Shown here: piece by piece, positions 3,266 through 4,501 of the stretch | Layout of the letters: each line of letters opens with the position of its first letter | Numbering within the stretch: the stretch's first letter is position 1 | DNA from: Candidatus Kapaibacterium sp. | GTDB lineage: Bacteria; Bacteroidota; Ignavibacteria; Kapaibacteriales; UBA2268 | Direction of reading: 5' to 3' | Length of the DNA: 64,000 nt | NCBI GenBank assembly: GCA_963665665.1 | Contig: OY762428.1 | Coordinates: 1,888,001-1,952,000 of the forward strand | Position numbers and translations under genes: made by a program | Notes under the pieces: model-generated | Database searches by the model: none | What the model was told of the DNA's origin: nothing | The model's input: only the letters and a program-made list of their open reading frames with translations

Positions 3266-3298
3266 AAGCCTTTGTAAAATATTTATTTACAAAGGCTT
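3266..3298. terminator. Hairpin downstream of the tRNA array
   Basis: AAGCCTTTGTAAA-N7-TTTACAAAGGCTT. Confidence 0.6.
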
Positions 3299-3308
3299 TT
3301 ATTTTATC

Positions 3309-3388
3309 TGGCGGAGAAGGTGGGATTCGAACCCACGATAGCGCTTAACACACTATGTCCCGATTGCATCGGGATGCCTTCAGCCACT
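3309..3388 (-). pseudogene. tRNA-Ser 3' fragment (D-loop to CCA) with substituted anticodon arm
   Basis: Identical to the tRNA at 4046-4135 except the 17-nt hairpin at 3358-3374; lacks the 5' acceptor strand; ends in encoded CCA. Confidence 0.85.
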
Positions 3389-3625
3389 ATTTATCAGTTC
3401 CTTAATATAACTTCTACTTTTCATTTTTTTGATTTTTAATTCATATACCACCGCTTCTGAGCGGCTTTCAAACATCTTTGAATAAACTAATTTCCATGGA
3501 CGGTATGGCTTTGTTGATTTTACAGAGCCGGAATTATGTTTCTCGACCCTTTGCTCAATATTTTCAGTCGATCCAACATAGTAACGGCCTGTACTCAGGC
3601 TTTGTAGTATATAAGTGTAAAACAT
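3380..3625 (-). CDS. Small stand-alone GIY-YIG nuclease, copy 1
   Basis: FYTYIL..YYVGST....RV.KHN.G..T....PWKLVY...SRSEA...E..IKK; upstream GAGG; stop codon lies in the tRNA D-loop copy. Confidence 0.92.
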   Translation of the reverse strand: MFYTYILQSLSTGRYYVGSTENIEQRVEKHNSGSVKSTKPYRPWKLVYSKMFESRSEAVVYELKIKKMKSRSYIKELINSG

Positions 3626-3646
3626 TGAAAATCCTCACCATATATG

Positions 3647-3672
3647 AAAAAAGGGAACCTGTAGTTCCCTTT
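3647..3672 (-). terminator. Intrinsic terminator between tRNA 3' end and GIY-YIG gene (repeated at 4014-4039)
   Basis: Minus strand AAAGGGAAC-TACAG-GTTCCCTTTTTT. Confidence 0.7.
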
Positions 3673-3678
3673 ATCCTG

Positions 3679-3755
3679 CGGAGAAGGTGGGATTCGAACC
3701 CACGATAGCGCTTAACACACTATGTCCCGATTGCATCGGGATGCCTTCAGCCACT
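3679..3755 (-). pseudogene. tRNA-Ser 3' fragment with substituted anticodon arm, no CCA
   Basis: As 3312-3388; hairpin at 3725-3741. Confidence 0.85.
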
Positions 3756-3992
3756 ATTTATCAGTTCCTTAATATAACTTCTACTTTTCATTTTTTTGAT
3801 TTTTAATTCATATACCACCGCTTCTGAGCGGCTTTCAAACATCTTTGAATAAACTAATTTCCATGGACGGTATGGCTTTGTTGATTTTACAGAGCCGGAA
3901 TTATGTTTCTCGACCCTTTGCTCAATATTTTCAGTCGATCCAACATAGTAACGGCCTGTACTCAGGCTTTGTAGTATATAAGTGTAAAACAT
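3747..3992 (-). CDS. Small stand-alone GIY-YIG nuclease, copy 2
   Basis: Protein identical to 3380-3625. Confidence 0.92.
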   Translation of the reverse strand: MFYTYILQSLSTGRYYVGSTENIEQRVEKHNSGSVKSTKPYRPWKLVYSKMFESRSEAVVYELKIKKMKSRSYIKELINSG

Positions 3993-4045
3993 TGAAAATC
4001 CTCACCATATATGAAAAAAGGGAACCTGTAGTTCCCTTTATCCTG

Positions 4046-4135
4046 CGGAGAAGGTGGGATTCGAACCCACGATAGCGCTTAACACACTATGCTGGTTTAG
4101 CAAACCAGTGCCTTCAGCCACTCGGCCACCTCTCC
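4046..4135 (-). tRNA. tRNA-Ser(GCT)
   Basis: GGAGAGG/CTTCTCC acceptor stem, G73, anticodon arm CTGGT-TTGCTAA-ACCAG, long variable arm, GGTTCGAATCC T-arm; CCA not encoded. Confidence 0.96.
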
Positions 4136-4471
4136 GTTTTTCAAATTTTTATCGCCAAGTGTTTTTTTCACTATGTCCCGATTGCATCGGGATGCCTTCA
4201 GCCACTCGGCCACCTCTCCGTTTTTCAAATTTTTATCGCCAAGTGTTTTTTTCACTATGTCCCGATTGCATCGGGATGCCTTCAGCCACTCGGCCACCTC
4301 TCCGTTTTTCAAATTTTTATCGCCAAGTGTTTTTTTCACTATGTCCCGATTGCATCGGGATGCCTTCAGCCACTCGGCCACCTCTCCGTTTTTCAAATTT
4401 TTATCGCCAAGTGTTTTTTTCACTATGTCCCGATTGCATCGGGATGCCTTCAGCCACTCGGCCACCTCTCC
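4136..4471 (-). repeat. 84-bp tandem repeat x4, each a tRNA-Ser 5' half with substituted anticodon arm plus 33-nt spacer
   Basis: cactatg-tcccgattgcatcggga-tgccttcagccactcggccacctctcc at 4169, 4253, 4337 and 4421. Confidence 0.95.
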
Positions 4472-4501
4472 GTTCTGACTGATTGTATCAATCAGAGAGT
4501 A

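Follow-up and report, generated by a model that had tools for sequence, protein, structure and literature searches.

Free-standing nuclease genes lodged beside tRNA genes are known from the phages T4 and T6, in which the GIY-YIG gene segB lies beside tRNAs of many isotypes and is reported to be enriched at such positions and to drive the tandem amplification of a 718-bp unit made of tRNA and segB (PMC13096335, in the part of that paper drawn upon here). We present here an arrangement of comparable kind from the chromosome of Candidatus Kapaibacterium sp.: within a stretch of 64,000 nucleotides (contig OY762428.1, positions 1,888,001 to 1,952,000; henceforth the window, in whose own numbering positions are given), the gene for tRNA-Ser(GCT) is accompanied by small GIY-YIG nuclease genes and by six partial copies of itself, in all of which the anticodon stem-loop has given way to one and the same perfect hairpin. 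We refer to this combination as a tRNA-tagging nuclease element, and it has the look of a selfish DNA element of a kind not previously described.

SegB is encoded by phages, includes a DNA-binding part and stems from the homing-endonuclease/UvrC branch, whereas the protein of the window is chromosomal, has 81 amino acids, consists of the catalytic domain only and falls by similarity in the Slx1/UPF0213 branch. Both systems form tandem repeats of tRNA plus nuclease, and in both the 3' end of the gene is homologous to tRNA (PMC13096335; PMC2330249); the passages of these two accounts used here mention no hairpin-swapped partial tRNA copies. Free-standing homing endonuclease genes resemble the element also in lying beside a conserved target, which here is a co-oriented tRNA in 67 of 81 loci, but classical homing endonucleases possess a DNA-binding domain for their long sites that the present nuclease does not have. 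Its relatives in sequence are the Slx1-like stand-alone proteins (UPF0213; PDB 1zg2 and 1ywl) and SLX1, with the minimal GIY-YIG domain in common; structure-specific endonuclease activity is attributed to SLX1 (PDB molecule names; PMC1564403), and the stand-alone family has been predicted to act in DNA repair (PMC1564403). The portion of this 2006 survey of GIY-YIG proteins used here makes no mention of a link with tRNA genes, the word tRNA appearing three times, for a fusion with TrmH and in references. The element is, then, closest in behaviour to free-standing homing genes of the SegB type and closest in sequence to UPF0213/Slx1.

Integrase-bearing islands and prophages (attL/attR) also insert at tRNA genes, keep a functional tRNA and carry a partial tRNA direct repeat, which often starts at the anticodon loop or the T loop and ends at the tRNA 3' end; their repeat copy is identical to the tRNA, whereas ours is altered by a conserved hairpin, and there is no integrase here, the 367-bp unit of the window holding just the 81-aa GIY-YIG open reading frame (ORF). 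REP/RAYT systems likewise have a nuclease-type gene flanked by cognate GC-rich hairpins, with further hairpins dispersed in the genome. RAYTs are HUH/Y1 transposases; by comparison, the enzyme here is of GIY-YIG type, the gene-side hairpins lie inside tRNA copies and the dispersed repeats do not occur in every gene-bearing genome. Type III toxin-antitoxin loci (ToxIN) share with the window short tandem repeats, a terminator and a small nuclease gene, but they belong to a different nuclease family; arrays are found in only 10 of our 81 loci, and their repeats derive from the adjacent tRNA. IS200/IS605 are small elements with ends defined by DNA hairpins recognised on single strands, while the present element has no HUH transposase and is flanked by long tRNA homology. 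Membership of integrase islands, REP-RAYT or ToxIN was considered and rejected, each failing on the enzyme. Our search of the openly available literature (subscription papers and supplements lie outside it) found no description of small GIY-YIG genes with hairpin-swapped tRNA copies.

The swapped arm within and beyond the window

The tRNA strand of the locus is the minus strand, in which all hairpins are quoted below. The sequence TCCCGATTGCATCGGGA (plus strand) is found without mismatch at six sites, 3358, 3725, 4176, 4260, 4344 and 4428, against 0.03 expected; six or more matches occurred in 0 of 100 shuffles, for which the maximum was one. This confirms the exact 17-nt exchange that an earlier note on the same DNA had reported, with the hairpin substituting for the anticodon stem-loop in six of six partial copies of tRNA-Ser(GCT). 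That it is a true replacement and not drift, as the same note had argued, is borne out when the six copies are aligned with the native tRNA: the arm differs at 13 of its 17 positions, while the shared flanks have no change in any copy. The unchanged flanks comprise 14 nt on the D-arm side and 7 nt on the variable-arm side in every copy; beyond these, the two 3' copies match the tRNA for another 39-40 nt up to its 3' end, and the four 5' copies for another 14 nt up to its 5' end. The 14-nt D-arm flank occurs seven times genome-wide, always at this locus, and the native arm just once, so that all six partial copies are swapped and the full gene alone keeps its arm. As DNA, both native and swapped arms are perfect 7+3+7 palindromes; within the tRNA, the native one forms the usual 5-bp stem with a 7-nt loop.

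The swapped hairpin is not the arm of some ordinary tRNA: the real tRNA-Cys of the genome (4538666-4538737) has the arm GCGGT-CTGCAAA-ACCGC, unlike it, and the hairpin appears in none of the other 49 tRNAs that ARAGORN finds in this genome. The same program labels 3309-3401 and 3678-3768, which correspond to the two swapped 3' pseudo-copies, as tRNA-Cys(GCA). These stretches give no match to RF00005 at E up to 1 and only a tRNA-Sec match of 21.2 bits (cut-off 47), and in the alignment ORF sequence stands where the 5' acceptor strand should be. We consequently reject the tRNA-Cys(GCA) identity, the cloverleaf being incomplete and the Rfam tRNA threshold missed, and regard both calls as artefacts. 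An Rfam scan of the hairpin, the pseudo-copies and two dispersed repeats produced no family besides tRNA.

This creates a question: Did the swap originate at this locus, or was it already present in the ancestors of the organism? Our set of close relatives comprises 41 genomes of the same family and order, two of which have close homologues of the nuclease (G023, 56% identity; G011, 53%), each with two tandem gene copies directly behind tRNA-Ser(GCT). In their 3' pseudo-copies TCCCGAT...ATCGGGA again replaces the anticodon stem-loop, the loops being tgtaa and tgct, respectively, instead of the gca of the window; in G023 the T arm is replaced too, by GTCCCGAAC-tc-GTTCGGGAC. In another relative, G020, a decayed gene end precedes a pseudo tRNA-Ser whose stem is the same and whose loop is tgaaa. 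Across four genera belonging to one family, tRNA-Ser(GCT) is accompanied by an invariant stem, TCCCGAT/ATCGGGA, with gca, tgct, tgtaa or tgaaa as loop. That all 14 nt of the stem have stayed the same, with proteins down to about 55% identity and a loop free to vary, suggests selection acting on the stem. Of 25 genomes of the family, 3 have an intact element at this tRNA and one a decayed element. The earlier idea of a single local hairpin-replacement event must be abandoned, since the same stem sits at the same tRNA position in relatives that are 53-56% identical or decayed; the swap was inherited, and the six copies arose by duplicating a copy that was already swapped. A search of the 41 relatives for TCCCGAT-N1-7-ATCGGGA gave 59 sites in 12 genomes, against two sites for the reversed control. 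Comparison with an empty site was attempted via the upstream neighbour gene: 13 relatives have a homologue (E ≤1e-30), but a tRNA-Ser lies beside it in none of six scanned loci, indicating that synteny has been lost.

The swap is not limited to tRNA-Ser even in the source genome. Directly behind tRNA-Ala(TGC) in both rRNA operons there are two and four head-to-tail units of 41 bp (2679060-2679150 and 3515050-3515220 of the genome contig), each spanning tRNA-Ala from its anticodon loop to its 3' end, but with TCCCGAT-tc-ATCGGGA where the T arm should be. The same 7-bp stem thus takes the place of a different arm in a different tRNA; no GIY-YIG gene lies near these arrays.

A one-genome-per-species scan provided 507 confirmed relatives of the nuclease, of which the best-scoring 80 form, together with the window, the 81 loci examined in this work; they come from more than 20 phyla and are not a random sample, and two of them (L022 and L028) read the same as the loci of G023 and G011 over the compared stretches and are not independent of these. 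A standard tRNA adjoins the gene in the same orientation in 67 loci and on the opposite strand only in none; the remaining 14 have no adjoining tRNA, eight of them having the gene less than 200 nt from the locus end. In three more of these 14 (L026, L032 and L061) the tRNA is farther off on the same strand, with pseudo-copy hairpins between tRNA and gene. We defined the core hairpin as a perfect stem with base YCCCG (or TTCCG, TCTCG). In 54 loci such a hairpin is no farther than 50 nt from the gene (40 downstream, 14 upstream); near genes its density is 3.9 per kb, in the remaining sequence 0.25 per kb. In 44 of the 81 loci, encompassing 13 tRNA types, the hairpin is flanked by at least 9 nt identical to the real tRNA of the locus. 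The hairpin thus recurs at the arms of other tRNA fragments, which the earlier note had left as a matter for checking, and neither of the two findings named there as refuting its view was made. By arm, 38 loci have the hairpin in place of the anticodon arm, 8 in place of the T/variable region and 7 in place of the D arm; in 13 loci the exchange covers precisely the 17-nt anticodon stem-loop, and in others it takes in only part of an arm. Two layouts are found: tRNA, gene and swapped 3' copy, as in the window, or swapped 5' copy, gene and tRNA (L024 and L080).

The conserved part of the hairpin is the base of its stem. Counted by locus, the hexamers are TCCCGA (37), CCCCGA (9), TCCCGC (8), TTCCGA (6), TCCCGG (4) and TCCCGT (3), with compensatory variants that keep the pairing (TTCCGA/TCGGAA, TCCCGG/CCGGGA, CCCCGA/TCGGGG and TCCCGC/GCGGGA). 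Among 107 distinct hairpin instances, 81 have, by the rule applied here, a stem without mismatch; internal mispairs amount to one G-T and no A-C, and those at stem ends to five G-T versus four A-C, imperfect stems being too few to decide on a strand asymmetry of wobble pairs. The spacing between half-sites ranges from 3 to 17 nt, as would be expected of a hairpin read at its base more than of a double-stranded palindrome of fixed geometry. Tandem gene copies, from two to seven, are present in 15 of the 81 loci, and arrays of gene-less pseudo-copies in 10, with up to 11 copies in L032.

We hold it for practically certain that the swapped arm is a conserved hallmark of a widespread family of small tRNA-gene elements and not a local accident. 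The element has three parts: a minimal GIY-YIG nuclease gene of about 80 codons, of Slx1/UPF0213 type and with intact catalytic residues; a partial or full duplicate of the neighbouring tRNA, the flanks of which follow the tRNA of the host; and a perfect GC-rich hairpin, YCCCGA-loop-TCGGGR, replacing an arm or part of it, generally within about 50 nt of the gene. The window contains one such element, at the genome's single tRNA-Ser(GCT), amplified to two gene units plus four extra 5' pseudo-copies. Small 'GIY-YIG nuclease family proteins', annotated in very many bacterial genomes with no function assigned, thereby gain a concrete context for one large subfamily, namely tRNA genes, a cognate hairpin and partial tRNA duplicates. 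The swapped copies are also an annotation pitfall, being miscalled as tRNAs, and they may break assemblies, a suspicion raised by the many relatives on contigs of about 1 kb or less.

The nuclease and what travels with it

The 81-aa protein is a GIY-YIG domain alone, matching Pfam PF01541 over residues 1-71 (E 8.5e-18, 64.9 bits for a cut-off of 22.6); neither this match nor the family alignment of 65 sequences shows any DNA-binding domain. Its nearest relatives of solved structure are the UPF0213 proteins 1zg2 (2e-8) and 1ywl (1.6e-6), followed by SLX1 chains at 0.005-0.007. The alignment shows no variation at Y5, Y16, G18 and E62, and conservation of 90% or more at R26, H30 and N31; we take the roles of these residues (motif tyrosines, Arg, His and metal-binding Glu) to be those of I-TevI and UvrC. 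Given the invariance of the motif tyrosines, Gly18 and Glu62 and the near invariance of Arg26, His30 and Asn31, the proteins of the family look catalytically competent. Relatives are 61-135 aa long, the search having covered lengths of 44-142 aa, with fused forms outside that range, and their public annotation is 'GIY-YIG nuclease family protein' or 'putative endonuclease' only. Prediction of a homodimer, with a score of 0.02 (mark 0.42), speaks neither for nor against one. Viral contigs yielded 14 distant relatives only (24-36% identity), and no phage reservoir was seen among them.

The two relatives at tRNA-Ser(GCT) display some features of their own. In G023 (L002 1389-1407) the nuclease ORF runs through the 5' arm of the first hairpin and stops at the TAA in its loop, so that the C-terminus of the protein and the swapped hairpin overlap. 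In G011 the tandem gene copies (L003 1501-1749 and 1879-2127) differ at four residues, among them Pro43, a residue that never varies across the 65 aligned sequences but is replaced by Thr in the second copy; the pseudo-tRNA parts of this locus are identical to each other and, outside the hairpin, to the native tRNA.

Which of these components move as a unit is best seen at tRNA-Asn, where a locus of Spirochaetota (L049) and one of Desulfobulbaceae (L053) have sister proteins (support 99) and a hairpin in place of the same ten tRNA positions. The flanks of their pseudo-copies match the tRNA of their own host wherever the two tRNAs differ. Gene, hairpin and hairpin position thus behave as the element, and the flanks as host sequence that is renewed at insertion or homogenised later. 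The hairpin TCCCGAA-agca-TTCGGGA is shared, loop included, by two genomes of different taxa (G042 and G045) at tRNA-Ala(GGC). Single genomes can hold several paralogous elements, each at a different tRNA. The link with tRNA genes is typical of the close subfamily: in five genomes it is found at 12 of 14 loci with a profile E ≤1e-17 and at 1 of 10 loci of distant paralogues, a count that uses 24 of 29 matches, the other five being further tandem copies in loci already included.

On the protein tree, the tRNA type changes 42 times, against 52 after shuffling (minimum 48), with the window carrying ARAGORN's false label 'Cys'; the hairpin hexamer changes 18 times against 23 (minimum 21) and the phylum 32 times against 42 (minimum 39). 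This clustering of labels reflects kinship only, not co-evolution.

What the swapped arm may do

How does a nuclease of this size recognise so constant a hairpin in so many different tRNA contexts, and to what end? The explanation that we favour, with a probability of about 0.5, is that of a homing-type selfish element in which the hairpin would be the nuclease's own site in cis. This possibility is suggested by the nature of the enzyme, which has no DNA-binding domain and derives from the structure-specific Slx1 branch, and by the conservation of the stem base while the spacing of the half-sites varies; a role tied to gene expression is disfavoured by the finding that the hairpin may lie on either side of the gene and in any of three arms. 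Among the three functional ideas of the earlier note, it is the hairpin as recognition end of the element that the evidence favours. Most likely, the nuclease would recognise and nick the base of the hairpin or of a cruciform, leaving a break with homology to the tRNA gene on both sides. Repair by recombination could then copy gene and hairpin into the cognate tRNA gene, a form of homing for which no homology outside the tRNA would be needed, while misaligned repair would generate tandem arrays as by-products of break-induced recombination. The tandem genes of 15 loci and the pseudo-copy arrays of 10 agree with such recombinogenic behaviour, and SegB offers a phage precedent for amplification of a tRNA and GIY-YIG unit driven by breaks. 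As side effects, the swap would stop the duplicate from working as a second tRNA and would split the homology, such that the essential tRNA gene is not readily converted and the element not readily lost; with two arms replaced, as in G023, almost no crossover would remove the element and leave a working tRNA-Ser(GCT).

Were the hairpin indeed the site of the nuclease, the element would be among the smallest autonomous ones, with a gene of about 250 bp and a 17-nt hairpin. It would also represent a bacterial chromosomal counterpart of the association of SegB with phage tRNAs, and a natural palindromic heterology that manages recombination beside an essential gene.

Several observations weigh against this explanation. 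The steps of the mechanism are deduced from comparison of sequences, cleavage, binding and mobility being putative. It is not obvious how a nuclease that cuts its own element would get to naive targets, unless these were engaged by the break or by a heteroduplex, and the exact arm-for-hairpin geometry of 13 loci would be more natural if RNA or a folded single strand mattered. Recent mobility is unsupported: the closest relative found is just 65% identical, near-identical copies in different hosts were not found and there is no empty site to compare; moreover, the protein tree is poorly resolved, with 4 of 78 inner branches starred. By the rule of the perfect stem, a core hairpin is missing from the 50 nt on either side of the gene in 27 of the 81 loci, some of which carry other hairpins such as TCGAGG..CCTCGA or ATGCAGAC..GTCTGCAT. 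Furthermore, the source genome (G000) has 169 core hairpins versus 14 in the reversed control, mostly in mosaic GC-rich dispersed repeats, and sites of the form YCCCGAC..GTCGGGR number 79 in G005 and 8 in G023. Since G005 (81% complete) has the repeats and a pseudo-tRNA array with no detectable gene, the hairpin is not exclusive to the neighbourhood of the gene.

A first alternative, to which we assign a rather low probability, is that the nuclease cuts the native arms of tRNA genes in element-free alleles and that the hairpin is an uncuttable substitute protecting the duplicate. Free-standing homing endonucleases do rely on resistant target variants, and each multi-copy locus has a single copy with the native arm (1 of 7 in the window, 1 of 13 in L032, 1 of 9 in L049), as expected if redundant native copies get converted. 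For protection, however, any non-target sequence would do, and yet the YCCCGA base is kept across phyla, in three arms and with 13 tRNA types, a diversity of targets that a catalytic domain of 81 aa could not read; besides, an intact native tRNA remains beside the nuclease gene. Immunity against a nuclease cutting the native arm, which the earlier note had also contemplated, thus fits poorly with one hairpin replacing many arms next to an intact tRNA.

Equally doubtful is a role at the level of RNA, in which the hairpin would be a protein-binding or processing element in the transcript of the nuclease or of the pseudo-tRNA; it could serve autoregulation, or the pseudo-tRNA could be an uncleavable mimic acting as decoy or antitoxin for a tRNA-directed GIY-YIG enzyme. 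The strongest point for RNA, or for a folded strand, is that the exact 17-nt replacement in 13 loci preserves the geometry of the cloverleaf, and the full-length pseudo-tRNAs of L032 still exceed the Rfam tRNA threshold (34 bits). Gene and tRNA are always co-oriented (67 versus 0), with the hairpin in 5' or 3' UTR position; in the window, array and terminator-like hairpin precede the gene, and type III toxin-antitoxin loci come to mind, which likewise join a repeat array and a terminator to a small nuclease gene. There is also one case of a Slx1-like domain fused to a TrmH-like tRNA methyltransferase (PMC1564403, in the part used here). Against all this, most copies, with only one of the two acceptor strands, are unable to fold as tRNA, G-U pairs are nearly absent from the stems (one internal G-T in 107 instances), which is unusual for RNA helices, and arrays occur in only 10 of 81 loci, while orphan arrays exist without a gene. 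The constant siting of the gene at tRNA genes would remain unexplained. The more specific suggestion of decoys against anticodon nucleases, made in the earlier note, finds no support: the 2-5-nt loops of relatives are not anticodon loops, and the copies are missing half of the acceptor stem.

Somewhat less probable still is an independent invasion by mobile GC-rich palindromes of REP type, settling in tolerated sites such as dead tRNA copies and unlinked to the GIY-YIG protein. Although the abundance of hairpins in G000 (169 core hairpins versus 14 in the control), G005 (79) and G023 (8) agrees with it, such an invasion would hardly account for the 54 of 81 loci, from unrelated phyla, that have a hairpin no more than 50 nt from the gene, or for a density there about 16 times that of the flanks. 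In addition, G011 keeps the element and its association with the hairpin without dispersed hairpins, and hairpin variants track the lineages of the element, not the genomes.

We consider it unlikely that the hairpin-tagged tRNA copy would serve as a targeting module that can be programmed. In this view the nuclease, whose size would not allow it to read DNA by itself, would hold the YCCCGA hairpin while the tRNA-identical flanks, as single-stranded DNA or RNA, would pair with the cognate tRNA gene; with the hairpin opposite the native arm, both would fold back and form a four-way junction, to be cut by the Slx1-like enzyme. If true, this would be homology-guided, structure-triggered homing that is retargeted by swapping flanks, and it would account both for one protein family with one hairpin at 13 or more tRNA types and for the frequent exact replacement of arm for arm.

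A working chimeric tRNA with a Ser body and a Cys anticodon (GCA), despite the two ARAGORN calls and a loop ATGCAAT with U33 and A37, is hardly credible with the 5' acceptor strand missing, the Rfam tRNA model mismatched and loops of 2-5 nt in relatives, and chance or drift is just as implausible for 13 compensated changes with none in the flanks, repeated six times against an expectation of 0.03.

Layout of the locus and dispersed repeats

The source genome is a single contig of 5.46 Mb with 38.6% G+C, and ARAGORN finds in it one gene only for tRNA-Ser(GCT), at 4045..4135 of the window on the minus strand (Rfam tRNA, 59.7 bits), with the native anticodon stem-loop at 4092-4108, unique genome-wide. 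All features of the locus are on this same strand. Reading along it, four 84-bp units come first, followed by the tRNA gene, a terminator-like hairpin, an ORF and a 3' pseudo-copy; then come a second terminator-like hairpin, ORF and 3' pseudo-copy, and finally an outer terminator-like hairpin. The tandem 84-bp units (4169..4472; repeat family D1, spacing 84, as in the alignment) each consist of a 5' pseudo-copy, extending from the 5' end of the tRNA to the start of the variable arm and including the swapped hairpin, plus an AT-rich spacer of 32 nt. The pseudo-copies lie at 4169-4220, 4253-4304, 4337-4388 and 4421-4472, and their hairpins, all identical (TCCCGAT-gca-ATCGGGA), at 4176-4192, 4260-4276, 4344-4360 and 4428-4444.

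On the other side of the tRNA there are two tandem units of 367 bp, 99% alike (3303..4044; repeat family D2, spacing 367), each formed by a terminator-like hairpin, the GIY-YIG gene and the swapped 3' pseudo-tRNA. The first includes the terminator-like hairpin with T run at 4017..4039, between tRNA-Ser(GCT) and gene copy B (3747..3992; 81 aa, taken from the ORF list and recognised by Pfam PF01541 and its PDB relatives); the TGA stop codon of this gene falls within sequence derived from the D loop of 3' pseudo-copy B (3678..3755), which runs from D loop to 3' end with its swapped hairpin at 3725-3741. The second unit has its terminator-like hairpin at 3650-3672, gene copy A, with a protein identical to that of copy B, at 3380..3625, and 3' pseudo-copy A at 3311..3388 (swapped hairpin at 3358-3374). 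By tblastn, A and B are the only copies of the nuclease ORF in the genome. A 20-mer of the T arm is found at 3319, 3686 and 4053. The outer terminator-like hairpin after the last pseudo-copy, at 3266..3298, may be the original terminator of the tRNA. A promoter scan of the locus, using a consensus that is not that of Bacteroidota-like promoters, found sites no commoner than in shuffles.

Assemblies of four sequencing runs, in which repeats are collapsed, contain pieces of the same locus: a 389-nt contig of X4 matches 3359-3747 exactly, one of 360 nt from X6 spans 3725-4080 with 12 differences, and another from X6, of 135 nt, covers the tRNA plus the first 84-bp unit.

Dispersed hairpins are numerous in only three genomes, G000 and, among the 41 relatives, G005 and G023, all of which have swapped pseudo-tRNAs; G011 has the element and no dispersed repeats. 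An example of the repeat strings in G000 is ...GCGAGCGCAGCGAGT-TCCCGACACGTCGGGA-CAGGCTGGGGTGG... The repeats of this genome (L109, L117 and C1:1352880-1353140) hold hairpins of the forms TCCCGAC-nn-GTCGGGA, CCCCGCTGGCGGGG and CCCCGAC-nn-GTCGGGG, and one composite repeat of 260 bp gives 179 blastn high-scoring segment pairs. These GC-rich repeats might be non-autonomous partners of the nuclease, or unrelated to it.

Among the other loci, TCGAGG-at-CCTCGA lies near the gene in L034, L041 and L066, which belong to three phyla, and a perfect hairpin ATGCAGAC..GTCTGCAT near that of the sister pair L058/L062; both may be alternative cognate hairpins. Misleading tRNA calls by ARAGORN recur as a tRNA-Gly(TCC) in L045 (2236-2309) and, in Poribacteria (L026, L027 and L032), as rows of 'tRNA-???' with 2-nt anticodons; the eleven full-length pseudo-tRNAs of L032 exceed the Rfam tRNA threshold (29.8-34 bits). 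In L026 (2662-2736) the 3' half-site TCGGGA equals the string T-CGG-GA across the anticodon of tRNA-Pro(CGG) (...CTTCGGGAGC...), which is among the commonest host tRNAs; the match may be a coincidence or a hint at the origin of the hairpin. The largest gene array seen is that of L039 (3-2231), where seven tandem GIY-YIG genes with a period of 343 bp, in a stretch that has no tRNA, are each followed by a TCCCGT-g-ACGGGA hairpin.

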